A stretch of DNA of 16,693 bases from Thermoplasmatales archaeon (GTDB lineage: Archaea; Thermoplasmatota; E2; UBA202; DSCA01), in the NCBI GenBank assembly GCA_011049295.1, contig DSCA01000203.1, positions 1 to 16,693 on the forward strand, read 5' to 3'. The notes under the pieces are model-generated. The model was not told where the DNA came from, searched no databases, and was given only the letters and a program-made list of their open reading frames with translations. The translations under genes were made by a program, and so were the position numbers. Positions within the stretch are counted from its first letter, which is position 1. Every line of letters begins with the position of its first letter. This document shows, in pieces, positions 3,228-16,212 of the stretch.

Positions 3228-4769
3228 ATGACGCTCTACGACCTTCTGAAACGAGGGGAGCGCCTGCACGCCGACCGACCCGCCGTCCTGTTCGGGGACG
3301 AGGTGCTCACCTACCACAAACTCAGGGAGCAGGCAGACGCGGTGGCCTCCTCCCTCCTGGAGCTGGGCATACAAAAGGGCGACAAGGTGGGGGTGTGGCT
3401 GCCCAACAGCGGCCGCTTTCTCTCCCTGTATTTCGGCATCACCGCCGTGGGAGCCACCATGGTGCCCCTGAACACCCGGTATCGTGCCCATGAGGTGTCC
3501 TACATCCTGCGCAATTCAGAGGCCCGAGCCCTGTTCATGGTGCCCTCCTTCCTCAAAATGGATTACCGGGAGATGCTGGCCGAGGTGCGCCCCCAGCTGG
3601 AAGGCCTGCAGCACGTGGTGGCCGTTGATGCAGAGGACAGCAGCGACGACGTCGGCCTGTCCTGGAGGGAATTTGTGGCCGGGAGCCGGCACTGCGACCC
3701 CGAGGAGCAGAGGGCGGAAGACGAGGACGTGGCTCTCATCCTCTATACCTCGGGCACCACCGGCCAGCCCAAGGGGGTGATGCTCACCCACCGCAACCTG
3801 GCCACCAACGCCCGGGTGACCGGAGAGGTCATGGAGGTGACCCCGGAGGACCGCTATTTCGTGCCCCTTCCCCTGTTCCATTCCTTCGGCCTGGTGCTGG
3901 GATGCCTGACCCCTCTCACCTTTGGCAGCAGCATCGTGCTCCAGGACGTGTTCGACGCCCGGGAGGCCCTGGAACTCATGGAGAAACACCGGTGCACCAT
4001 GAACTTCGGGGTACCCACCATGTTCATGCTGGAGCTGGAGGAGATGAGAAAGAGTTCCTACCACCTGTCTCTGCGCAGCGGCATGATGGGCGGCGCCCCC
4101 TGCCCCATAGAGGTGGTGAAGGGGGTACGCCAGGAGATGGGCTGCAACGTGTGCATCGGCTACGGCATCACCGAGACCTCCCCCCTCATCTCGCTCACCC
4201 GCTACCACGATGACGACGTCCAGCGGGCGGAAAGCGTGGGCCGGCCCCTTCCCGGGGTGGAGGTGCGAATCGTGGACGACCAGTGGAGGACCCTCCCGGA
4301 CGGGGAAATTGGGGAAATCGCCATTCGGGGCAACGTTATGAAGGGCTACTACCGGATGCCCGAGGCCACCCGGGAGGCCGTGGACGACCAGGGCTGGTAC
4401 TACAGCGGAGACCTGGGAAAAATGGATGCACAGGGCTACCTGTACATCACCGGGCGGAAAAAAGACATGATTGTGGTGGGAGGATTCAACGTCTATCCCC
4501 GGGAAATCGAGGAAGTGCTGTTCACTCATCCCGGGGTCCAAAACGTGGCCGTCATCGGGGTTCCCGACCCCCGGCTGGGGGAGGCGGTCAAGGCATGCAT
4601 CGTCCCCCGCGGCCAGGTGAGCAAAGAGGACATCAGGGAGTTCTGCCGCCAGAGGATGGCCAACTTCAAGGTGCCCACGTACGTGGAATTCATGGACTCC
4701 TTCCCCATGACGGCCAGCGGAAAGATTCAGAAGTACAAGTTGAGGGAGCAGCATGACCCATCCCAGTGA
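3228..4769 (+). CDS. AMP-forming acyl-CoA synthetase/ligase (ANL superfamily, FadD-like), about 513 aa
   Basis: Canonical motifs YTSGTTGQPKGV, GYGITE, YYSGDLG and GRKKDMIVVGGFNVYPREIE. The track's start at 3219 is GTG. I prefer the in-frame ATG at 3228 (MTLYDLL...). Confidence 0.9.
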   Translation: MTLYDLLKRGERLHADRPAVLFGDEVLTYHKLREQADAVASSLLELGIQKGDKVGVWLPNSGRFLSLYFGITAVGATMVPLNTRYRAHEVSYILRNSEARALFMVPSFLKMDYREMLAEVRPQLEGLQHVVAVDAEDSSDDVGLSWREFVAGSRHCDPEEQRAEDEDVALILYTSGTTGQPKGVMLTHRNLATNARVTGEVMEVTPEDRYFVPLPLFHSFGLVLGCLTPLTFGSSIVLQDVFDAREALELMEKHRCTMNFGVPTMFMLELEEMRKSSYHLSLRSGMMGGAPCPIEVVKGVRQEMGCNVCIGYGITETSPLISLTRYHDDDVQRAESVGRPLPGVEVRIVDDQWRTLPDGEIGEIAIRGNVMKGYYRMPEATREAVDDQGWYYSGDLGKMDAQGYLYITGRKKDMIVVGGFNVYPREIEEVLFTHPGVQNVAVIGVPDPRLGEAVKACIVPRGQVSKEDIREFCRQRMANFKVPTYVEFMDSFPMTASGKIQKYKLREQHDPSQ

Positions 4770-5931
4770 CGACCTCCGGGGGAGCTCCTCGGACAAACTG
4801 CGGGGAAAAACCGTGGTCCTGGGCGTCACCGGCAGCATCGCCGCCGTGGAGAGCGTCAAACTGGCCCGGGAGCTGACCCGGCACGGGGCCCGGGTGATTC
4901 CGGTGATGAGCCCCGCGGCCTGCCGCATCCTGCACCCCGACGCCCTGTGGTTTGCCACGGGCAGAAAGCCGGTCACCGACCTGACCGGGGACGTGGAGCA
5001 CGTCCGCCACTGCGGACGGCGAGAGAACCAAGCGGATATGCTGCTGGTGGCCCCCTGCACCGCCAACACCCTGTCCAAAATAGCCCTGCGGATAGACGAC
5101 ACCCCGGTGACCACCATGGCCACCACCGCCGTGGGCTCCGGCCTGCCGGCGCTGCTGGTCCCCGCCATGCATGCCGCCATGTACGACAATCCCTTCGTCA
5201 GGGACAACCTGCAGAGGTGCCGGGAGCAAGGCATCCATCTCGCCGACCCCCGCCGGGCAGAGGGAAAAGCCAAGATGCCGGAGATGGAGGACGTCGTGGC
5301 CCGGGTGCTGCGCCTGCTGGGAAAAAACGACTGGGCGGGAAAGCAGGTGCTGGTGGTGGGCGGGGCCACCGCCGAATACCTGGACCCGGTACGGGTGCTC
5401 ACCAACCGGTCATCGGGAAAAATGGCCCTGGCCCTGGCCGCCGCGGCCTACCAGCGGGGGGCGGAAGTGGAACTCTGGCACCACGGACTGAACCCCCCTG
5501 CTTACCTCAGCAGTAGCACCTTTACCACCAGCGTTGACCTGGTGCGCCGCGTCCAGCAGGCCGGCCGGTACCACTGCATCATCAACTGCGCCGCCATCAC
5601 CGACTTCACCTGCCGAGCCCAGGAGAGAAAAATGGCCTCCGGCCAGCCCCTGGACCTGCACCTAGAGCCGGTGCCCCGGATCAATCCCCTGCTGAGGGAG
5701 CACGCCAACCTGCTGGTGGGCTTCAAGCTGGAAACCGACCGGGAGCGGGCCCTGGAGCGGGCCTGGGAGACGCTGCACCGGGACGGGCTGGACTACGTGG
5801 TGGCCAACACCACGGCCTCCCTGGGAGGAGACGACGCCCAGGCCTGGATTATAGACCGGGAGAAAAACACCACGCCGGCCAGCGGAGCCAAATCCCAGGT
5901 GGCGGACAGACTCCTGGACCTCATACGATGA
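4753..5931 (+). CDS. coaBC: Bifunctional phosphopantothenoylcysteine decarboxylase / phosphopantothenate-cysteine ligase (CoaBC/Dfp), 392 aa
   Basis: N-terminal flavoprotein domain (KTVVLGVTGSIAAVES, PCTANTLSKIA) and C-terminal CoaB domain (GGATAEYLDPVRVLTNRSSGKMA). It overlaps the upstream ligase gene by 17 nt. Confidence 0.9.
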   Translation: MTHPSDDLRGSSSDKLRGKTVVLGVTGSIAAVESVKLARELTRHGARVIPVMSPAACRILHPDALWFATGRKPVTDLTGDVEHVRHCGRRENQADMLLVAPCTANTLSKIALRIDDTPVTTMATTAVGSGLPALLVPAMHAAMYDNPFVRDNLQRCREQGIHLADPRRAEGKAKMPEMEDVVARVLRLLGKNDWAGKQVLVVGGATAEYLDPVRVLTNRSSGKMALALAAAAYQRGAEVELWHHGLNPPAYLSSSTFTTSVDLVRRVQQAGRYHCIINCAAITDFTCRAQERKMASGQPLDLHLEPVPRINPLLREHANLLVGFKLETDRERALERAWETLHRDGLDYVVANTTASLGGDDAQAWIIDREKNTTPASGAKSQVADRLLDLIR

Positions 5932-6764
5932 ATGCCATCGCCTTTGCCCCCGCCCATGTCACCGGCTTTTTTGAAATATGCCGCACCTCCTCCCCGGAGA
6001 CCACCGGCTCCCGGGGGGCTGGTCTCTGCCTGTCCCTGGGGGCCACGGCCAGCGTGGAGCGCAGCGATCACACAGAGGTTATGGTAAACGGCCGTCCCGG
6101 GGGGGAGGTCACCGCCACCGCCCTCCGCCTGCTCACCCCGGAACCCCTCCGTGCCCATGTCACCCTGGACTTGCCCGTCTCCCAGGGCCTGGGGATGAGC
6201 GCCGCCGGAACCCTGGCCTCCACCCTGGCCGCTGCCTCCCTGCTGTGGCTGCCCCGGAAACGGGCGGTGGCCGCGGCTCACGTGGCCGAGGTTCGCTGCT
6301 CCACCGGCCTGGGAGACGTGCTGGCGGCGGCCCGGGGAGGGATAGAGGTACGGCTATCGCCGGGGCTGACCGGAGAAATCATCGGGGTGCCCGGAGGAGG
6401 GGAGGTGGTGGTGGCCGTGGTGGGCCCCCCGCTGCCCACCGTACAGGTGGTGACCGACGACCGGCAGGGGCAGCACATCTCCCGGGTGGGGAGACGATGC
6501 GTGGAGGACATGCTGCGCCGGCCCACCCTGGACAACCTGTTTTTTTTGTCCCGGCGGTTTGCCGAGGAAACAGGGCTCCTGCAGCCGGCGGTGGGGGCGG
6601 CAGTGGAGGCAGCGGCGGAGCATAGCCGGGTCTCCATGTGCATGCTGGGAAACGCGGTGTTTGCCATGGGGGACACTCCCGCCCTGCAGGAGGCGCTGGC
6701 CGGGCACGGAGACGTATACACCTGCCGTGTAGCGCAGAGAGGAGCCCGGCTCATCGGCCACTGA
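5928..6764 (+). CDS. GHMP-family kinase, probably archaeal pantoate kinase (PoK), 278 aa
   Basis: GHMP motif II PVSQGLGMSAAGTLASTLAAA. ATGA stop/start overlap with coaBC. Size and context fit COG1829 pantoate kinase, but archaeal GHMP shikimate kinase is not excluded. Confidence 0.65.
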   Translation: MNAIAFAPAHVTGFFEICRTSSPETTGSRGAGLCLSLGATASVERSDHTEVMVNGRPGGEVTATALRLLTPEPLRAHVTLDLPVSQGLGMSAAGTLASTLAAASLLWLPRKRAVAAAHVAEVRCSTGLGDVLAAARGGIEVRLSPGLTGEIIGVPGGGEVVVAVVGPPLPTVQVVTDDRQGQHISRVGRRCVEDMLRRPTLDNLFFLSRRFAEETGLLQPAVGAAVEAAAEHSRVSMCMLGNAVFAMGDTPALQEALAGHGDVYTCRVAQRGARLIGH

Positions 6765-6788
6765 GGTGGCCGTCAAAATTCGACAACG

Positions 6789-6796
6789 TTTTATAG
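6789..6796 (+). promoter_or_regulatory. TATA box (ttttatag) about 24 nt upstream of the ATG at 6816
   Basis: Near-consensus archaeal TATA in the 51-nt spacer after the PoK stop. Confidence 0.45.
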
Positions 6797-6815
6797 GCCG
6801 TACGGGTTTTTCGCC

Positions 6816-6989
6816 ATGGTCATTTTCGGCGTTCCCCTGTGGCTGCTGCTTCTCGTGGTCATTGCGGTCGTTCTCATCGGTTGGAAACTGGTGAAGTTTG
6901 CCCTCACCCTGCTGCTGTTGCTCATCCTGGTGCTGGGCATTCTGATGGTGGCAGACCTGATATGGCCCCACCTGACGTCGCTGTTCTAG
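6816..6989 (+). CDS. Small hydrophobic protein, 57 aa, two predicted TM helices; not in the ORF track
   Basis: ATG..TAG ORF encoding MVIFGVPLWLLLLVVIAVVLIGWKLVKFALTLLLLLILVLGILMVADLIWPHLTSLF. It has its own TATA at -24 and coding-like GC3 bias. It sits in a 265-nt gap that no credible ORF otherwise covers. Confidence 0.45.
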   Translation: MVIFGVPLWLLLLVVIAVVLIGWKLVKFALTLLLLLILVLGILMVADLIWPHLTSLF

Positions 6990-7001: not shown

Positions 7002-7010
7002 TCTTTAAAC
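7002..7010 (+). promoter_or_regulatory. TATA-like element (tctttaaac) about 24 nt upstream of the hutI ATG at 7030
   Basis: AT-rich element in the 40-nt spacer. Confidence 0.35.
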
Positions 7011-7029: not shown

Positions 7030-8208
7030 ATGATTCTCATCAGGGAGGCCAGCGAGGTTTTTCTGCCTGACGGCGTGGCCACCCATGCCTCGGTGCTGAT
7101 TGAGGATGGACGCATACGGGACATCGGACGGCAGGTGACGGCCCGGGGGGCGGAGGTCATCGACGCCCGGGGCAAGACCCTGCTGCCCGGCTGGGTGGAC
7201 AGCCACACCCACGTGGTGTTCGCCGGCTCCCGGGAATTCGAGCTGGACCTGAAGCTCCAGGGTGCCACCTACCGGGAGATTGCCGCCCGGGGGGGAGGCA
7301 TCGGCTACACGGTGCAGCAGACCCGCCGGGTGTCGGAGGAGAGGTTGCAGGCAGAGGCGGAGTTGCGCCTGGACGCCATGCTGGCCCACGGGACCACCAC
7401 CGCCGAGGTGAAAAGTGGCTACGGCCTGGACACCAAAAGTGAGGTCAAGATGCTGCGGACGGTCCGCCACCTGAACGAGCGGCATCCCGTGGACCTGGTT
7501 CCCACCTTCATGGGTGCCCACGCCATACCTCCGGGCGTGGACCGGGAGGATTACGTCAGACTGGTGAGGGAGGAGATGATTCCCCGGGTGGCGGAGGAGC
7601 AGCTGGCCGTGTTCTGCGACGTCTTCTGCGAGGAGGGATACTTCAGCGTGGAGGAGTCACGGGCCATCCTGCAGGCGGGGCGGGAGCACGGCCTGACCCC
7701 CCGGGTGCACGCCGACGAGCTCTCCGACTCCGGGGGGGCGGAGCTGGCGGCCGAGCTGAAGGCGGCCAGCGCCGACCACCTCCTCATGGCCTCCCCCCGG
7801 GGGCTGAAAAAAATGGCCCGGGCCGGGGTGCCCGCCGTGCTGCTCCCCGCGGTTCCCTTTTCCCTGATGCAAAAGAGGTACGCCCCCGCCCGGAAGATGC
7901 TGGAGCTGGGACTGGATGTGGCCCTGGCCACCGACCTCAATCCCAACTGCTGGACGGAAAACATGCAGTTCGTCATCCAGCTGGCCTGCTTTGCCATGGG
8001 CATGACCCCCCGGGAGGCCATCCACGGAGCCACCCTGGGGGGGGCCAGGGTGCTGGGTCTGGAACGGGAGGTGGGCAGCATCGAGGTGGGCAAAAAGGCC
8101 GACCTGCTGCTGGTCAATGCCCCCTCCCATCTGTTCGTCCCCTACCACTTCGGGGTGAACCTGGTGGAGACGGTCATCAAGGACGGCGTGGTGGTATGCG
8201 GGGGGTAG
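7030..8208 (+). CDS. hutI: Imidazolonepropionase (HutI, amidohydrolase superfamily), 392 aa
   Basis: Collinear with bacterial HutI: LLPGWVDSHTHVVFAGSREFELDLKLQGATY, GGGIGYTVQQTR, TTTAEVKSGYGL, PVDLVPTFMGAHAIPP, HADEL..GGAELAAELKAASADHL, ADLLLVNAPSHLFVPYHFGVN. Confidence 0.85.
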   Translation: MILIREASEVFLPDGVATHASVLIEDGRIRDIGRQVTARGAEVIDARGKTLLPGWVDSHTHVVFAGSREFELDLKLQGATYREIAARGGGIGYTVQQTRRVSEERLQAEAELRLDAMLAHGTTTAEVKSGYGLDTKSEVKMLRTVRHLNERHPVDLVPTFMGAHAIPPGVDREDYVRLVREEMIPRVAEEQLAVFCDVFCEEGYFSVEESRAILQAGREHGLTPRVHADELSDSGGAELAAELKAASADHLLMASPRGLKKMARAGVPAVLLPAVPFSLMQKRYAPARKMLELGLDVALATDLNPNCWTENMQFVIQLACFAMGMTPREAIHGATLGGARVLGLEREVGSIEVGKKADLLLVNAPSHLFVPYHFGVNLVETVIKDGVVVCGG

Positions 8209-8825
8209 CACTGGTCTCCGGAGGGATTGACTCCCCGGTGGCCCTGTACGTGATGGCCCGTCACATGGAATGCCTGGCCCTGCACATGGACACCCGCCCC
8301 TTCCTGCCCATGGACGAGAGGGGCAAGGTGGCATCCCTGGTGCGGCGGGTGGCGGAGGCGGCGGGGAGGCAGATACCGCTGTGGCACGTGCCCTTCGGCG
8401 AGGTGGTGCAGAGGGCCATCGCCGCCCACACCCGCCCCCACTACCACTGCCTGCTGTGCAAGCGCATGATGTACCGGGTGGCGGCGGCCCTGGCCGGGCA
8501 GCAGCGGGCATCCGTGGTGGTCACCGGAGAAAACCTGGGCCAGGTGGCCTCCCAGACTCTGCACAACCTGCGGGTGCTGGAGGAAAGCATCGACCTGCCC
8601 GTGGTGCGCCCCCTGATTGGGCTGGACAAGCAGGAAATCGTGGACCTGGCCCGGCACATCGGCACCTACCAGCTGTCCATCGAGGAGGCGCCCTCCTGCC
8701 TGCTGGTGCCGGACGCCCCGGCCACCGCCGCCGCCCTGGAGGCCGTGCACGCCGAGGAGGAAAATCTGGACGTGGCCGGGCTGACGGCCCGGGCATTAAA
8801 GGAAGCGCGCATGGAGAAACTTTAA
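8196..8825 (+). CDS. Stand-alone ThiI-type PP-loop ATPase domain protein (tRNA-sulfurtransferase catalytic domain; no THUMP or rhodanese domain), 209 aa
   Basis: PP-loop ALVSGGIDSPVA at the very N-terminus, plus ThiI hallmarks TGENLGQVASQTLHNLRVLE and RPLIGLDKQEIVDLARHIGTY. It has a CxxC (HCLLCKRMMY) like methanogen ThiI. It overlaps hutI by 13 nt. Confidence 0.8.
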   Translation: MRGVALVSGGIDSPVALYVMARHMECLALHMDTRPFLPMDERGKVASLVRRVAEAAGRQIPLWHVPFGEVVQRAIAAHTRPHYHCLLCKRMMYRVAAALAGQQRASVVVTGENLGQVASQTLHNLRVLEESIDLPVVRPLIGLDKQEIVDLARHIGTYQLSIEEAPSCLLVPDAPATAAALEAVHAEEENLDVAGLTARALKEARMEKL

Positions 8826-8833
8826 AAAATAAA
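8821..8833 (+). promoter_or_regulatory. TATA element (tttaaaaaataaa) about 24 nt upstream of the tRNA-Val 5' end
   Basis: It overlaps the stop codon of the ThiI-like gene. The spacing is right for the mature 5' end at 8851. Confidence 0.45.
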
Positions 8834-8850
8834 CGCCCATTATAGCAGAG

Positions 8851-8924
8851 GGGCTCTTGGTCTAGCTGGTTATGACGTCGCCTTGACATGGCGGAGGTCC
8901 TGGGTTCGAATCCCAGAGAGCCCA
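8851..8924 (+). tRNA. tRNA-Val (anticodon GAC), 74 nt, no encoded CCA
   Basis: Manual fold: acceptor GGGCTCT/AGAGCCC, D-loop with A14 and G18G19, anticodon stem TCGCC/GGCGG with loop TTGACAT (U33, GAC, A37), 5-nt variable loop, T-arm CTGGG-TTCGAAT-CCCAG, discriminator A. Confidence 0.9.
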
Positions 8925-8966
8925 CTGGTGGCACGAGGGGAGCCGGGGCGCCCGCCCATGAACAAG

Positions 8967-10767: not shown

Positions 10768-11070
10768 ATGATAATTGCGGAACTGGCCATCTTTCCCACC
10801 TCGGAGGGAACATCGGTGAGCCGCTACGTGAAGGCCGCCGTGGAGGCGCTGGAGGAGACGGGGCTGACCACCCACACCGGCCCCATGGCCACCTGCATCG
10901 AGGGTCCGGATCTGTCTGCCATTCTGCGGGCGGTGGAAAGGGCCCACCGGGCCATGGTGGACATGGGTGCCCGGCGCATCCATATCGACCTCCGCATTGA
11001 CCACCGCCTGGACAAGGAGGCCACCATGGCCGCCAAGCTGGCATCCATTGGAAAGGGTGACCATGCATAG
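10768..11070 (+). CDS. MTH1187/YkoF-family protein (UPF0045; thiamine/HMP-binding-like ferredoxin fold), 100 aa
   Basis: MIIAELAIFPTSEG...SVSRYVKAAVEALEETGL...TGPMATCIEGP is the characteristic N-terminal strand, G-rich loop and helix of the MTH1187/YkoF family. Size matches. Confidence 0.75.
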   Translation: MIIAELAIFPTSEGTSVSRYVKAAVEALEETGLTTHTGPMATCIEGPDLSAILRAVERAHRAMVDMGARRIHIDLRIDHRLDKEATMAAKLASIGKGDHA

Positions 11071-12019
11071 CCTGTGGGTGGAGAAGTACCGTCCGGAAAC
11101 ACTGGACCAGGTGGTGGGGCAGGTGGGGGTGGTGGACAGCCTGCGGGCCTACGCGGCGTCGGGCAGCATTCCCCACCTGCTGTTTGCGGGGCCGGCGGGA
11201 ACCGGCAAGACCACCTGTGCCATCGCCCTGGCCAAGCAGCTGTACGGCGAGACTTGGAGGGACAACTTCGAGGAGCTGAACGCCAGCGACGAGCGGGGCA
11301 TAGACGTGGTACGGGGAAAAATCAAGAACTTCGCCCGCACCGCCCCCCTAGGGGAGGCCTCCTTCAAGATTATTTTTCTGGACGAGGCGGATTCCCTGAC
11401 CCCGGACGCCCAGTCCGCCCTCCGCCGCACCATGGAGCGCTACGCCCGCATCTGCCGCTTCATCCTCTCCTGCAACTACTCCTCTAAAATCATTGACCCC
11501 ATCCAGTCCCGGTGTGCGGTGTTCCGCTTCTCCCCCATCGACCGGGAGGACATGCGATGCCATCTCTCCCGGGTGGCCCAGCGGGAGGGGCTGGAGATAA
11601 CCGGGGACGGCATGGAGGCCCTGCTGTACATAGCCCGGGGGGACCTGCGCAAGGCCCTCAACGCCCTGCAGACCTCGGCCACCCTCTCCCAGACCATAGA
11701 TGCCGACTCGGTGTACTGCACCACGGCCACGGCCCGGCCCGAGGAGGCCCAGCAGGTGATGGAGGTGGCCCTGCGGGGAAACTTTCTGGAGGCCCGGGCC
11801 CTCCTGGACAAGATGCTGATTGACTACGGGCTGAGCGGGGAAGACGTCATCAAGGGCATGCACAGCGCCCTGTTCGACCTGCCCATCCCGGAAAAGGCCA
11901 AGGCGGACATCGTGGAAAAGATGGGAGAGGCGGAGTTCCGCATGGTGGAGGGGAGCAACGAGCGCATTCAGATTGAGGCGCTACTGGCCCATCTGGCGAT
12001 GGCGGGGAGAGCGCGATGA
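11063..12019 (+). CDS. rfcS: Replication factor C small subunit (clamp-loader AAA+ ATPase), 318 aa
   Basis: MHSLWVEKYRPETLDQVVGQ (RFC box II), Walker A LLFAGPAGTGKTT, Walker B IIFLDEADSLT, SRC motif PIQSRCAVFRF. A GGGTGA SD lies 4 nt upstream. The true start is ATG 11063. The track's GTG 10967 start runs through the upstream gene in another frame. No intein. Confidence 0.9.
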   Translation: MHSLWVEKYRPETLDQVVGQVGVVDSLRAYAASGSIPHLLFAGPAGTGKTTCAIALAKQLYGETWRDNFEELNASDERGIDVVRGKIKNFARTAPLGEASFKIIFLDEADSLTPDAQSALRRTMERYARICRFILSCNYSSKIIDPIQSRCAVFRFSPIDREDMRCHLSRVAQREGLEITGDGMEALLYIARGDLRKALNALQTSATLSQTIDADSVYCTTATARPEEAQQVMEVALRGNFLEARALLDKMLIDYGLSGEDVIKGMHSALFDLPIPEKAKADIVEKMGEAEFRMVEGSNERIQIEALLAHLAMAGRAR

Positions 12020-13620
12020 AAAAGGCGGACCTGCCCCTCGTCCGGTGGGATCGGGTGCAGGAACGCTCCTATCAGATTAACGTTTTTGAGCAGGTGAAGG
12101 ACCGGAAATCCCTGGTGGTGCTGCCCACCGGGCTGGGGAAGACCATCATTGCCATCCTGGTGCTGGCCTACCGGGCGGAGCGGGGGCGCATCCTGTTTCT
12201 GGCGCCCACCAAGCCCCTGTGCGAACAGCATGCGGTCTCCATATCCCGGCTGACCTCCCTGGAGCCGGTGGTGGTCACCGGGGAGCTGTACGGCCCGGAC
12301 CAGAGGAAGGAGATATATCGCCGGGGAGAGGTGGTGGTGGCCACCCCGCAGACCGTGGAGAACGACCTGGACCGGGGCGTCAATCCGGGTGACTTCAGCC
12401 TGATTGTGTTTGACGAGGCCCATCGGGCGGTGGGCAGCTACGCCTACGTGGGAATCGCCCGGCGCTATCTGCGGCGGGGCAGCCAGATACTGGGCATGAC
12501 CGCCTCACCGGGGAGCGATTACAAAAAACTGAGGGAGGTGGCGGACCATCTGGGCATCGAGCACGTGGAGCTGCGCACCGAGCAGGACCCCGACGTGCAG
12601 CCCTACCTGGCCCAGCGAAGGATGCGCTGGGTGCTGGTGGACATGCCGGAGGAGGTGAAGCGCATTGTGCGCCGCCTGGACGTCATGCTCACCGATTTTT
12701 TGGCCGAGCTGGCCACCTACACCCGGCAGGCCCGTAACCTGTCGGCGGGCAAGCTGAGCAAAAAGGCGCTCATCGACATCCAGAGCCGGATGCGGAGTCA
12801 TCTGGGGAAGCGGGGGGGCTCCATGTACAAGGCCATCAGCGTGGTCTCCGCCGCCATCAAGCTGGCCCATCTCAAGGACATGCTGACCAGTCAGGGTGTG
12901 GAGGCCGCCCAGAGCTACCTGGCCAAGCTGGAGTTCGACCGGTCCAAGGCGGCGGCCAGCATCCGCAAGCACCGGCTGTATCCATCCATCCGGCGGGACA
13001 TCGTGACCCTGGAGGCGCAGCGGCCCAAGCTGGAGAAGACCCGGGACATTCTCCTTCAGCACCTGGAGCGCCACCCGGACGGACGGGTCATCCTGTTTGC
13101 CGAGTACCGGGACACCATCGATTTTTTGCTGAGGGCCATCCAGAGCCTTCCCGGGGTGAGGGCCCGCAGATTCATCGGCCAGGCCCGGGGCGCCAACGAC
13201 GGCATGAGCCAGGAGGAACAGAAGGAGACCCTGCAGGCCTTCCGGGAGGGGGAGTTCAACGTTCTGGTGTCCACCAGCATCGGCGAGGAGGGCATCGACG
13301 TGCCGGCCACCACCCTGGTGCTGTTCTACGAGCCCGTACCCTCGGCCATCCGGGCCATCCAGCGGCGGGGGCGGACCGCCCGGGACGGGGTGCCGGGCAT
13401 GGTGGTCATCCTGATTATGAAGGGCTCCCGGGACGAGGCCTACTACTGGAGCAGCAGGGGCAAGGAGAAGAAGATGTACCAGCAGATTGCCCGGCTGAAG
13501 CGGGAGCTGGAAACAGCGGAGACCCCGTCCGGGTGGCATCCCTCCCCGCCGAAAAAAAGGGAGAAGGTGCCCACCGACCAGCGGGGGCAGAGCCGGCTGG
13601 ACAGCTTTTATCCCGGGTAG
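12016..13620 (+). CDS. Hef/FANCM-family SF2 helicase (helicase module only; no XPF/ERCC4 nuclease or HhH2 domain), 534 aa
   Basis: Motif I VLPTGLGKT, II VFDEAHRAVG, III LGMTASPG, VI QRRGRTARDG, with a roughly 200-aa helical insertion between the RecA lobes as in Pyrococcus Hef. The protein ends about 10 aa after the helicase core. ATGA overlap with rfcS. Confidence 0.85.
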   Translation: MKKADLPLVRWDRVQERSYQINVFEQVKDRKSLVVLPTGLGKTIIAILVLAYRAERGRILFLAPTKPLCEQHAVSISRLTSLEPVVVTGELYGPDQRKEIYRRGEVVVATPQTVENDLDRGVNPGDFSLIVFDEAHRAVGSYAYVGIARRYLRRGSQILGMTASPGSDYKKLREVADHLGIEHVELRTEQDPDVQPYLAQRRMRWVLVDMPEEVKRIVRRLDVMLTDFLAELATYTRQARNLSAGKLSKKALIDIQSRMRSHLGKRGGSMYKAISVVSAAIKLAHLKDMLTSQGVEAAQSYLAKLEFDRSKAAASIRKHRLYPSIRRDIVTLEAQRPKLEKTRDILLQHLERHPDGRVILFAEYRDTIDFLLRAIQSLPGVRARRFIGQARGANDGMSQEEQKETLQAFREGEFNVLVSTSIGEEGIDVPATTLVLFYEPVPSAIRAIQRRGRTARDGVPGMVVILIMKGSRDEAYYWSSRGKEKKMYQQIARLKRELETAETPSGWHPSPPKKREKVPTDQRGQSRLDSFYPG

Positions 13621-15014
13621 CCCCCGATGTGCAGGCTGGGGTCGCCCAGCAGCACCCATTCCTGCACGGTTTTGGCGTCCAGGGCGGTGTCGTGGAAGGC
13701 CTGCTGGCTCCAGTCTACGGGAAACTCGTCCAGGTAGGAGGAGATGGCCTGCCGCCAGGCGTCGCCCAGCACCTGCTGCCCCTGCTGCCCGTAGGCGTGG
13801 AAAAACAGCACGTTGAGGTGGTCGCCGCCTCCCTCCGTGGCCTCCTGCTTGTCCTCCCTGCCGTAGCCCAGGCCAGTGCAGCCCAGGGTGGCTATGGCTC
13901 CGCCGTTGGTGCAGCGGGTGAGACGCCACCCCCAGCATTCGTAGACGGGGAGGCCGAAGGTCCAGGTGGTATGGGTGAGACTGATGTTGAACATGCAGTT
14001 GTGGCATCCGCCCACCACGCACACCGGCAGCCAGTGGCCGTTGGTGAGCAGGGGCATGTGCAGGTTCTGCAGCCCGTAGATCCACACCGAGTCGTCGTAG
14101 GGGGGATGGGTGGCCCAGGTGGTGGGGCTGCCGTGGCCGGCGAAGAATAAAAAGCCGCAGCCCTGGTTGATGGTGCCCACCACGTCCCGCCAGCCCTGCA
14201 GGGAGCCGTCCGAGGTGTACAGGGTAACCGGGGTGAAGTCGGTCATGTGCTCCAGGGCCTGCCGGGTGACCTCCTCTCCCTCGAAGTAGTCGTTGAAGGT
14301 GTAGGTGTCCCCGGCCACCGCCACCATGCGCTGGAACCAGCCGGGGTCGGCGGGGGTGCTCTCGTAGGAGATGATTTTGTTCACCATGATGTCCACCTCC
14401 CGGGCGTTGCGGCAGGGAAGCCGGCCCACGGCCACCTCCGGGTAGAGGTCGGCTACATCCTCGGCCGGCTGGCGGGCCCGCCACTCGCCGTAGATGCCGT
14501 CTCCATCGGTGTCCCAGGATGAAAAGGTGCCATTGCGGTCGTAGATGTCGGCAAAGTACAGGTCGCTGATATACCGTTTTTCCTGGGTGGCCACGTTGTC
14601 CTCGATGTGGCTGTACCGCACGGGCAGCCACCAGGGCTCGCCGCTCAGCGAGGGGCGCCGCCCCCCCACCAGCAACAGGTAGGATATGTTCCAGGTGTCC
14701 AGGGCATATCGGACAAAGTACTTTATCTGCTCCGCCTGGTCCCGGCCCTGCACCGGGGTGTAGGTTCCCCCGTAGATGTCCTCCAGGGTGACCGTCAGGG
14801 TGGCCAGGCCCCTGTTGTCCTTGTGCTCCGTCAGGGGGGCCAGGTGTGCCTCCCAGGCCGCCGGGGTGACCACCAGCAGGTCATACCGGTCGGTGACCGG
14901 CTGGGCCTCCCACCGCACCCGGTCCCCCTGAAGGGGAACGGTGGTCAGGGCGGTCAGGGAGCCGGACATGACCAGGACGCCCAGCGCCACCATCACGATT
15001 GTTTTTCCAGACAT
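13608..15014 (-). CDS. Secreted clan-CD cysteine peptidase, C25/gingipain-like, 468 aa
   Basis: Signal peptide MSGKTIVMVALGVLVMSGSLTA. The clan-CD pattern is a hydrophobic strand plus His-Gly (FLFFAGHGSPTTW) followed by a hydrophobic strand plus Cys (LPVCVVGGCHNCMF). A GGAGG SD lies 6 nt upstream on the minus strand (15021-15025). The gene converges on the Hef gene with a 13-nt overlap. Confidence 0.6.
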   Translation of the reverse strand: MSGKTIVMVALGVLVMSGSLTALTTVPLQGDRVRWEAQPVTDRYDLLVVTPAAWEAHLAPLTEHKDNRGLATLTVTLEDIYGGTYTPVQGRDQAEQIKYFVRYALDTWNISYLLLVGGRRPSLSGEPWWLPVRYSHIEDNVATQEKRYISDLYFADIYDRNGTFSSWDTDGDGIYGEWRARQPAEDVADLYPEVAVGRLPCRNAREVDIMVNKIISYESTPADPGWFQRMVAVAGDTYTFNDYFEGEEVTRQALEHMTDFTPVTLYTSDGSLQGWRDVVGTINQGCGFLFFAGHGSPTTWATHPPYDDSVWIYGLQNLHMPLLTNGHWLPVCVVGGCHNCMFNISLTHTTWTFGLPVYECWGWRLTRCTNGGAIATLGCTGLGYGREDKQEATEGGGDHLNVLFFHAYGQQGQQVLGDAWRQAISSYLDEFPVDWSQQAFHDTALDAKTVQEWVLLGDPSLHIGGYPG

Positions 15015-15117: not shown

Positions 15118-16212
15118 ATGACCTCCTGCGCACTGGACATCCGGGAGCTCTCCCGGGTTTTTGACGGGGAAAGCAGGCCCACCTATGTCAGCCTCTACTC
15201 CGACGGCACCGACCCCCGGTTCATACACCGGCGCCGGCAGGCCATCCGATCCGCCCTGCCCTCCCACCTGCGGGAAAACTTCCAGCAGACCATGCAGGAA
15301 GTCACTCGCTACCTGAATGACCACGGCAGCCGCAACGTGGCCCTTTTTGCCTCCGCCGCCCATGATTTTTTCAAGGCGGTGAGCCTGACCGATGCACCCC
15401 CCAACCTCCTGGTGGTGGACTCCTCCCCCTACATTCGCCCCCTGGCCGCCCTGGACGACCAGTGGGAGGGATTCACCCTGGTGCTCATGAACACCCATCA
15501 CGCCAAAATATACAGCGTGGCCTGCAGCGACATCGCCCGGGAAAAAGAGCTCTCCCGGGAGGTGATGAACAAGCACAAAAAGGGAGGCATGTCCCAGGCC
15601 CGGTTCCAGAGGCTGCGCAGGGGCAGCATCCACCACTTTTACCAGGACCTCAGGGGGGCCCTGCCGGCCCCGGGCAGCCAGAAAATCATCCTGGCCGGCC
15701 CCGGAGAGGCCAAGCACCAGTTCCTCCACCATCTGTCCCCGCCTCTGCAGGAAAACGTGGTGGCCCTCATCGATGCCCCCATGGACGGCGAGCAGGAGCT
15801 GTGGGAGGACTCCATCCACGCCATGCGCGAGCACGGTCAGGAGGTGAAAGGACGCCTGCTGGACCAGCTGAAGAAGGAGATACTGACCGACGGACTGGCC
15901 GCCTACGGCGTCTCCGAGGTCACCCGGGCCACCCGCAACGGTCAGGTGGAAGTGCTGTTCGTGGAGCGGGGACACCGGCAGCGGGGCTGGCTGTGCGAGC
16001 GATGCCAGCGCCTGGGGACAGGCACCGCCCCCTCCTGCCCCACCTGCGGGAAGCCGGTAACCACCGTGGACGTGCTGGAGGAAATCATGGAGTTTGCTCA
16101 GCGTACCGGCGCCCCTGTCACCTTCGTGGATGACGACTTTGTGGGGCAGATGGGCCACGTGGCAGCTCTTCTCCGCTATCGAACCGAGAATACAGGAGAG
16201 GCGGTGGCCTGA
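15118..16212 (+). CDS. eRF1/Pelota-superfamily paralogue with degenerate GGQ (GGM-SQ), no NIKS motif and a C4 zinc-ribbon insertion in the C-terminal domain, 364 aa
   Basis: Central domain aligns with eRF1 domain 2: KHKKGGMSQARFQRLRR versus eRF1 KHGRGGQSALRFARLR, and KIILAGPGEAK versus LVLAGSADFK. The C-terminal domain ends FVDDDFVGQMGHVAALLRY versus eRF1 FVSDKS.EG.QF.KGFGGIGGILRY, and is interrupted by CERCQRLGTGTAPSCPTCGK. The N-domain has an eRF1-like YVSLYSDGTDP but none of the stop-codon-recognition motifs. Confidence 0.8.
   Translation: MTSCALDIRELSRVFDGESRPTYVSLYSDGTDPRFIHRRRQAIRSALPSHLRENFQQTMQEVTRYLNDHGSRNVALFASAAHDFFKAVSLTDAPPNLLVVDSSPYIRPLAALDDQWEGFTLVLMNTHHAKIYSVACSDIAREKELSREVMNKHKKGGMSQARFQRLRRGSIHHFYQDLRGALPAPGSQKIILAGPGEAKHQFLHHLSPPLQENVVALIDAPMDGEQELWEDSIHAMREHGQEVKGRLLDQLKKEILTDGLAAYGVSEVTRATRNGQVEVLFVERGHRQRGWLCERCQRLGTGTAPSCPTCGKPVTTVDVLEEIMEFAQRTGAPVTFVDDDFVGQMGHVAALLRYRTENTGEAVA

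Follow-up and report, generated by a model that had tools for sequence, protein, structure and literature searches.

What does an enzyme of histidine catabolism have in common with the catalytic domain of a 4-thiouridine (s4U) synthase? The question is raised by a fragment of an archaeal genome classified in the Thermoplasmatales (contig DSCA01000203.1; 16,693 nucleotides (nt), ~64% guanine plus cytosine; hereafter, the window, to which all coordinates without a locus name refer), in which hutI, the gene for imidazolonepropionase (392 amino acids (aa); 7030..8208, +), overlaps the gene for a 209-aa protein (8196..8825, +). This protein, denoted mini-ThiI below, appears from Pfam and NCBIfam matches and a structure model to be a stand-alone PP-loop pyrophosphatase (PPase) catalytic domain of the ThiI/TtuI type. 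The initial annotation of this DNA had suggested that the two products may be coupled, possibly in a novel pathway of thiolation or salvage that acts on a small molecule or on a different RNA. The analysis described here leads to a different answer: the two genes are probably unrelated in function and would share one transcript in one lineage of Thermoplasmatota, mini-ThiI probably being the catalytic subunit of an RNA s4U synthase of the iron-sulfur (Fe-S) type that would dock tRNA in trans.

A stand-alone ThiI catalytic domain

The 209-aa protein covers positions 5-196 of the 197 in the Pfam ThiI profile (PF02568), with a score of 194 bits. Its N-terminus reads MRGVALVSGGIDSP, which places the ATP-binding PP-loop motif SGGIDSP at residues 8-14 (8217..8237, +). 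In an alignment of 45 mini-ThiI homologues that are 43-82% identical to the window protein (alignment A1), residues S8, G10, I11, D12, S13 and P14 of this motif are invariant and G9 is conserved in at least 90% of the sequences, and the GQVASQT segment (G115-T121) is invariant as well. Equally invariant are C85 and C88, the first two cysteines of the CxxC+C [4Fe-4S] motif (C85-L-L-C88; 8448..8459, +), and Cys168 (8697..8699, +), the third predicted cluster ligand, which is equivalent to the catalytic Cys344 of bacterial ThiI and aligns with the 'dsC'/'edCC' position of the structures 4KR6 and 2C5S. The CxxC+C triad has been defined for the Methanococcus maripaludis TtuI, in which it ligates the catalytic [4Fe-4S] cluster (PMC9825150); all three cysteines of this signature of [4Fe-4S]-dependent TtuI are present in mini-ThiI (C85, C88, C168). 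The AlphaFold (AF2) model of the protein, with a predicted local distance difference test (pLDDT) score of 94.7, is matched by Foldseek to the PPase domain of Thermotoga maritima ThiI (4KR6) with a query TM-score (TMq) of 0.91 and a root-mean-square deviation of 1.9 A, as against TMq values of just ~0.5 for QueC, TtuA and MnmA. For LarE, TMq is ~0.51-0.54 to the available structures, and the score on TIGR00268 is 32.9 bits against a cut-off of 150. The motifs, the domain match and the fold superposition show that the catalytic domain of ThiI is intact in mini-ThiI, which is not a decayed fragment, nor is it an enzyme of the LarE kind.

The initial annotation had described this protein as a ThiI PP-loop domain with SGGIDS and a CxxC motif and with neither THUMP nor rhodanese domain, a description that is borne out and to which the third cysteine has to be added. 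Profile searches gave no match to the ferredoxin-like domain at the N-terminus (NFLD; ThiI_fer), to THUMP or to rhodanese in mini-ThiI or in any other open reading frame (ORF) of the window. The DNA upstream of the mini-ThiI start is wholly taken up by HutI, whose alignment to the hutI model runs through to its end, and because this DNA encodes an intact HutI C-terminus, it harbours no hidden or frameshifted THUMP domain. The ATG at 8196 is the sole ATG, GTG or TTG in the mini-ThiI frame since the preceding stop; reading of the sequence shows that start codons in this frame are possible only at Cys or Trp codons of HutI. The point that such a unit, being devoid of THUMP, cannot dock tRNA in the way a full-length ThiI monomer does is well taken, and it becomes apparent in a comparison with the M. 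maripaludis TtuI/ThiI MMP1354 (PMC9825150): the two proteins share the ThiI-type PPase domain, SGGIDS, the CxxC+C triad and the absence of rhodanese, whereas the window protein lacks the ~175 residues of the N-terminal ferredoxin-like and THUMP domains that bind the acceptor stem and the CCA end.

Is this architecture peculiar to the window? A homologue search with mini-ThiI returned 3080 matches, the best 120 of which are nearly all 202-237 aa long, and when representatives of clusters at 50% identity were searched exhaustively, proteins of ~190-240 aa made up about half of the best 150, the remainder being ~370-420-aa full-length ThiI. Among the matches listed from a scan of genome contigs, most were full-length ThiI of bacteria and none was a close relative of the window. 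Short forms were seen in Thermoplasmata, Methanomassiliicoccaceae, Methanoregula, Methanosarcinales, Micrarchaeota, Woesearchaeota, Nanoarchaeia and Thermococcales, and NCBIfam has a single-domain model of 198 positions (NF006222/PRK08349) labelled 'hypothetical protein'. The PRK08349 proteins of Thermococcales (~190-198 aa) have the same single-domain architecture and the same motifs as mini-ThiI and align with it end to end. Thus, the THUMP-less ThiI architecture is already catalogued and widespread in archaea, though uncharacterised; no study of the function of stand-alone ThiI was found in the literature searched. Within this family, the window protein matches HDS59922.1, encoded in a metagenome-assembled genome of 'Thermoplasmatales archaeon', at 100% identity. 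The phylogeny of the PP-loop domain, to which the initial annotation had looked for guidance, was informative in part: in a neighbour-joining tree of PPase domains, mini-ThiI branches within the ThiI radiation of archaea and the hutI-linked proteins form a monophyletic group, but its deep branches are long and unreliable, so that it allows no inference on a single origin of the short form. Two sets of apparent novelties were set aside in the course of these searches. The 270-310-aa matches among the cluster representatives, taken as candidates for new architectures, are mostly 5'-truncated full-length ThiI, and P0243 and P0249, candidates for tandem-ThiI-domain proteins, contain exact internal sequence repeats that mark them as probable metagenome misassemblies.

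A probably ordinary hutI in a block of conserved gene order

The product of hutI scores 459.3 bits on the equivalog model TIGR01224 (cut-off 298), over profile positions 3-376 of 377, and shows full-length similarity (354 bits) to Bacillus subtilis HutI (PDB 2BB0). The metal ligands are retained in HxH (H59/H61), HADE (H227) and TDLNP (D302) and, like the substrate-site motifs GSRE, KSGYG and GAHAIPP, are identical in the alignment with 2BB0. With E-values of 1e-57 and 1e-138, both assignments of the locus lie far beyond chance. The initial annotation was therefore right to call this gene a bona fide hutI, and its product is most likely a genuine, ordinary imidazolonepropionase of histidine catabolism. 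The enzyme would carry out the metal-dependent conversion of 4-imidazolone-5-propionate to N-formimino-L-glutamate, which, in this phylum, would be handed on to formiminotransferase-cyclodeaminase. Unlike in complete hut pathways, none of hutH, hutU, hutG and FTCD (glutamate formiminotransferase/cyclodeaminase) is encoded beside hutI or elsewhere in the 16.7-kb window. In relatives with HutI of 56-58% identity, hutI divergently adjoins the genes for FTCD and formate-tetrahydrofolate ligase (FTHFS), whose products act in the downstream half of the histidine-catabolic route. A distant Thermoplasmatales genome (L092), in which hutI adjoins FTCD, shares a further feature with the window: a gene for a protein resembling aRF1/baeRF family 10 lies 7-8 kb 3' of hutI in both (window 15118-16212; L092:15096-16169), a position that may be a relic of older synteny.

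Are hutI and mini-ThiI expressed together? TATA-like boxes were read by eye, sigma-70 promoter and terminator models being inapplicable to an archaeon. The box TTTAAA (7004..7009, +), ~21 nt 5' of the hutI ATG, probably serves as the archaeal promoter for a near-leaderless transcript of hutI and mini-ThiI, and no comparable element was seen by eye before mini-ThiI. A second predicted box, TTTAAAAAATAAA (8822..8834, +), overlaps the mini-ThiI stop codon and lies ~17 nt 5' of the gene for tRNA-Val(GAC), which ARAGORN places at 8851..8925 (+), 25 nt past that stop; this box is likely to be the promoter of the tRNA gene. Such a layout would agree with one bicistronic mRNA for hutI and mini-ThiI and with separate transcription of the tRNA.

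Does a shared transcript imply a shared pathway? The overlap of 13 nt (8196..8208, +) noticed in the initial annotation is real, and in relatives it amounts to 4 or 13 nt. However, it carries little weight because 6 of the 12 consecutive same-strand gene pairs of the window overlap, by 4-17 nt, including clearly unrelated genes such as those for a thiamine-binding protein and replication factor C (RFC). The order hutI, mini-ThiI, tRNA-Val(GAC) is kept in the Thermoplasmatota clade of the window, in which identity to the window proteins ranges from 53 to 100% for mini-ThiI and from 66 to 100% for HutI, and the same hutI/mini-ThiI locus occurs on independent ENA, JGI and Logan contigs. The conservation extends to both sides, with DUF7839, acyl-CoA ligase, CoaBC, pantoate kinase and a small ORF 5' of hutI, and HAD, DUF1614, thiamine-binding protein, RFC and helicase genes 3' of tRNA-Val. 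The linkage of hutI to mini-ThiI is block synteny of one lineage. The conservation of the pair in related archaea, which the initial annotation had proposed to check, thus holds within this clade and fails beyond it, as none of 13 more distant archaeal mini-ThiI loci carries a hutI-like gene. Because the pairing is limited to the block of one clade and the two genes keep separate contexts outside it, the pattern of conservation argues for juxtaposition rather than for a common pathway.

The presence of a tRNA gene next to the gene for an enzyme of a tRNA-modifying type is probably a coincidence. tRNA-Val(GAC) is also found 3' of mini-ThiI in relatives (L007:6654-6820, L008:2449-2615 and L009:6661-6735). 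In some relatives it is succeeded by tRNA-Leu(CAG), and the contigs of two others (L004, L005) terminate at the position of the tRNA after mini-ThiI.

How a THUMP-less domain could reach its RNA

If mini-ThiI acts on RNA, how would it find the target uridine? In the complex of T. maritima ThiI with RNA, NFLD and THUMP provide most of the hold on the RNA; on one subunit these domains bind the acceptor stem and the CCA end and bring U8 to the PPase site of its dimer mate, with the recognition of CCA by THUMP setting the specificity for U8, and the contacts that keep the dimer together are mainly those of the PPase domains (PMC4041423). Since THUMP and NFLD in the ThiI dimer serve the neighbouring subunit's PPase site, a catalytic subunit devoid of THUMP could work if it dimerised with a THUMP-bearing partner.

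Possible partners are encoded next to mini-ThiI in other lineages. At the Nanoarchaeia locus L073, the gene for a 266-aa NFLD-THUMP protein (7165-7965, -) is divergent to mini-ThiI (8001-8552, +), and at the Woesearchaeota locus L049 the two genes (4863-5690, -, and 7959-8585, +) lie 2.3 kb apart; the best PDB match of both NFLD-THUMP proteins, at 139 bits, is 1VBK, that is, PH1313 of Pyrococcus horikoshii. The PH1313-like family, with 1561 matches, combines NFLD, THUMP and a degenerate PPase domain that has lost SGGIDS, and its orthologue in P. furiosus does not have any cysteine; the activity of PH1313-type proteins has never been confirmed (PMC9957541). PH1313 belongs to the same ThiI superfamily as mini-ThiI and is likely to be its complementary half, found beside or fused to mini-ThiI in DPANN and metagenomic loci: THUMP is present and SGGIDS and the Cys motifs are absent, whereas the reverse is true of the window protein, and no PH1313-type gene is found in the window. 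A metagenome scan added short THUMP genes beside separate mini-ThiI genes at L095, L118/L119, L142, L145, L158 and L170, and a single ORF (P0276, 526 aa; L174:4001-5581) unites NFLD, THUMP, degenerate PPase and mini-ThiI. The initial annotation had held that a THUMP ORF adjacent or fused in relatives would betray a split-gene artefact; such ORFs do occur, but they are genuine separate genes, divergently oriented in several cases. Adjacency is not universal, given that there is no mini-ThiI within 4 kb of the PH1313-like P0399 of P. furiosus. P0399 (AAL81611) had also been considered as the biochemically studied PfTtuI (PF1288) of this organism, an identification that is ruled out, as it is the Cys-less PH1313 orthologue.

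The partner could also be a full-length paralogue. In 11 loci of the metagenome scan, a full-length ThiI of 381-392 aa is followed within 0.07-1.6 kb by a mini-ThiI of 190-195 aa. This arrangement, full-length ThiI and then a ThiI-only gene, is of the Thermococcales type (L103-L107, L120-L122, L124-L127 and L175), where the short gene is of the PRK08349 type (190-197 aa) and the full-length partner has 381 aa; in the window, by contrast, mini-ThiI comes after hutI. In the complete genome of Thermococcus sp. SY098 (CP141821.1; L175), full-length ThiI (4001-5146) and a 197-aa ThiI-only gene (5167-5760) are separated by a 20-nt gap. The full-length copy of SY098 (P0401) has the CxxC and is missing the third-position Cys, and the short copy has all three cysteines. 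The recurrent linkage and the fusion of mini-ThiI with THUMP-bearing ThiI-like chains, together with its proximity to E1/Ubl sulfur-relay genes, hint that many archaea have a 4-thiouridine synthase that is split and heterodimeric. The narrower proposition that mini-ThiI is the catalytic half, and a PH1313-type pseudo-ThiI the tRNA-docking half, of a two-subunit archaeal s4U synthase is a tentative one, to which we give somewhat less than even credence; it is independent of hutI and more probable than the thiolation of a small molecule.

A further clue, this time to the source of sulfur, comes from the 13 archaeal mini-ThiI loci at 37-47% identity, in 8 of which a gene for an E1-like ThiF adjoins mini-ThiI. 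Genes of the ThiF/ThiS type accompany mini-ThiI at L010, L011, L013, L017, L020, L021, L032 and L033. Two fusion proteins, P0116 and P0242, have a ThiS/MoaD-type domain that ends in GG joined N-terminally to mini-ThiI. The archaeal E1-ThiI linkage was noted by Makarova and Koonin and read as tRNA thiolation (PMC2948915). Just after or near mini-ThiI in the ThiF-linked loci, there is also a small conserved ORF (N-terminal 'LLKPCK'; L010:6621-6890, L011:6617-6934, L012:9519-9758 and L016:1742-1993) with a weak TBP-fold match (E = 0.0016), which may correspond, as a protein by itself, to the TBP-like domain that E1 enzymes have at their C-terminus. A parallel is offered by the TtuA-TtuB-TtuC and NcsA-SAMP2-UbaA systems, whose thiolases are [4Fe-4S] PP-loop enzymes and to which mini-ThiI relatives are akin in their linkage to an E1-like ThiF and a ThiS/MoaD carrier, including a fusion; these systems differ in that their thiolases belong to another PP-loop subfamily (TMq ~0.5) and target C2 of U54 or U34 rather than C4, and in that the window has no E1 or ubiquitin-like (Ubl) gene. 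Neither an E1-like ThiF nor a ThiS/MoaD carrier is present in the window or in the loci L001-L009 of its clade.

From the domain, the motifs and the fold of mini-ThiI, and from the gene contexts of its relatives, we infer its substrate, Fe-S binding, sulfur donor and partner in trans, as follows. Mini-ThiI would bind ATP at the SGGIDS PP-loop and adenylate the C4 oxygen of an RNA uridine, most likely U8 or U9 of tRNA; the adenylate would then be displaced by sulfur carried on the free iron of a [4Fe-4S] cluster held by C85, C88 and C168. The donor of this sulfur might be sulfide or else a thiocarboxylate of the ThiS/MoaD type, for which an E1-like ThiF would be responsible. Archaeal CxxC+C enzymes make s4U with a [4Fe-4S] cluster, ATP, Mg2+ and sulfide (PMC9825150). 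A THUMP-bearing chain, either a PH1313-type pseudo-enzyme or a full-length paralogue, would dimerise with mini-ThiI, PPase to PPase; for the window protein, this partner would be encoded elsewhere in the genome.

Several observations weigh against this reading. The window has no THUMP, ThiF or Ubl gene, nor has any of the Thermoplasmatota loci examined within 6-8 kb of mini-ThiI, and because of this the idea of a partner in trans rests on other lineages, namely DPANN and Thermococcales; the P0276 fusion is known from a single contig. The match of mini-ThiI to the full-length ThiI model TIGR00342 is confined to the C-terminal half (positions 176-367) and, at 181.3 bits, is below the curated cut-off of 264.5. 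On PRK08349 the protein covers positions 1-192 of 198 at 189.9 bits, below the cut-off of 251, compared with 324.9 bits for a Thermococcales-like mini-ThiI, which passes, and 244 bits for P0078; by this measure mini-ThiI, despite sharing the PRK08349 architecture, appears to belong to a different subfamily. In the literature searched, no demonstrated activity was found for any member of the stand-alone ThiI family. Finally, the overlapping pair is kept down to 53% identity, including L009 with its different upstream neighbourhood, so there may be some selective reason for the co-expression of hutI and mini-ThiI.

Could mini-ThiI then dispense with a partner altogether? As a homodimer, it would be an RNA 4-thiouridine synthase that recognises tRNA or another RNA via the PPase domain only, in the manner of single-domain PP-loop thiolases like TtcA, and takes its sulfur from sulfide. 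We consider this unlikely and nonetheless a serious alternative to the model with a partner in trans, one for which the lack of a partner gene at the Thermoplasmatota loci just described speaks. The catalytic motifs of mini-ThiI are complete, and other THUMP-less PP-loop tRNA thiolases exist, TtuA and MnmA being among the structural neighbours of mini-ThiI; the M. maripaludis TtuI uses free sulfide in vitro (PMC9825150). Such autonomy is difficult to square with the ThiI-RNA structure, in which NFLD and THUMP hold the RNA and the recognition of CCA by THUMP fixes U8 (PMC4041423), and the repeated adjacency and the one fusion with THUMP-bearing chains in other lineages favour a partner.

The gene contexts that led us to a sulfur carrier could also be read without RNA, as a ThiS/MoaD-ThiF pathway in which mini-ThiI contributes to a cofactor or another non-RNA product, for instance, one related to thiamine. 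Besides the ThiF linkage and the Ubl fusion, mini-ThiI of Methanoregula lies near ThiN, an AIRS-family gene and a cysteine desulfurase-like aminotransferase, and in the window a thiamine-binding-protein gene is located 1.9 kb 3' of mini-ThiI. Still, this reading is improbable: in bacteria, ThiI serves thiamine synthesis through its rhodanese domain alone and not through the PP-loop (PMC9825150), the archaeal links of ThiF and Ubl with PP-loop enzymes are generally read as tRNA thiolation (PMC2948915), and the linkage and fusion with THUMP proteins indicate RNA.

Even less can be said for the pathway proposed at the outset, in which the PP-loop unit would adenylate and thiolate a substrate other than tRNA or a small molecule, for instance, at a ring carbonyl of the imidazolone or hydantoin type, and HutI would open or process the ring; we regard it as very improbable. 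Its appeal lies in the overlapping gene ends, the predicted co-transcription and the retention of the arrangement in the clade, and also in the existence of PP-loop enzymes that thiolate small molecules, of which LarE, including [4Fe-4S] forms, is among the remote structural matches of mini-ThiI; an amide-type ring carbonyl would, by our reasoning, be chemically analogous to the C4=O of uracil. Against this stand the absence of the pairing outside one clade, where HutI relatives are found with FTCD and FTHFS and mini-ThiI relatives with ThiF, Ubl and THUMP genes, the block synteny within that clade, and the frequency of gene overlaps in the window. Moreover, HutI retains all the hallmarks of a standard imidazolonepropionase, and mini-ThiI is much nearer to ThiI (TMq 0.91; 181 bits) than to LarE (~0.53; 33 bits). 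DPANN archaea have very small genomes; that they retain mini-ThiI would, in our view, favour a role in RNA modification. The comparative context thus lends no support to the coupling put forward in the initial annotation, and its boldest form, in which the Fe-S ThiI domain of this clade was recruited away from tRNA to make or salvage, with the co-translated HutI, a thio-imidazolone or hydantoin compound, that is, a new thio-metabolite pathway, strikes us as equally improbable. As for a truncated remnant of full-length thiI or an assembly or annotation artefact, this reading is effectively refuted, notwithstanding the truncated 270-310-aa matches and the seemingly misassembled P0243 and P0249, given the identical architecture on independent ENA, JGI, Logan and NCBI contigs, the invariance of catalytic residues over 45 homologues at 43-82% identity, the complete HutI encoded in the upstream DNA, and a dedicated NCBIfam model (PRK08349) for the short family.

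Neighbouring genes and the meaning of the locus

Upstream of hutI, a cluster of acyl-CoA ligase, CoaBC and archaeal pantoate kinase genes occupies positions 3228-6764, with overlaps of 17 and 4 nt, and a conserved 57-aa hydrophobic ORF without a family match (6816-6989) is located just 5' of hutI; the block 3228-6989 is syntenic in the relatives L004, L005 and L007. On the other side, the ORF of the thiamine-binding-protein family (PF01910; 10768-11070) has an 8-nt overlap with the RFC small-subunit gene (11063-12019), for which the mechanical ORF list has a longer GTG start (10967) than the gene calls, and a further overlap, of 4 nt, is that of the RFC gene with the gene for a DEAD/ResIII helicase. 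A homologue of peptidase C25 (gingipain family; 13608-15014, -; 199 bits) is convergent with the helicase gene and overlaps its 3' end by 13 nt.

So what is to be made of this locus? As such, it is ordinary: a standard hutI beside a member of a catalogued, uncharacterised family of THUMP-less ThiI domains. The more interesting lead, which lies outside the window and has the status of a hypothesis, is the linkage and fusion of mini-ThiI with PH1313-type THUMP proteins. A split heterodimeric 4-thiouridine synthase, if real, would explain two orphan protein families as well as the way in which THUMP-less enzymes find U8.

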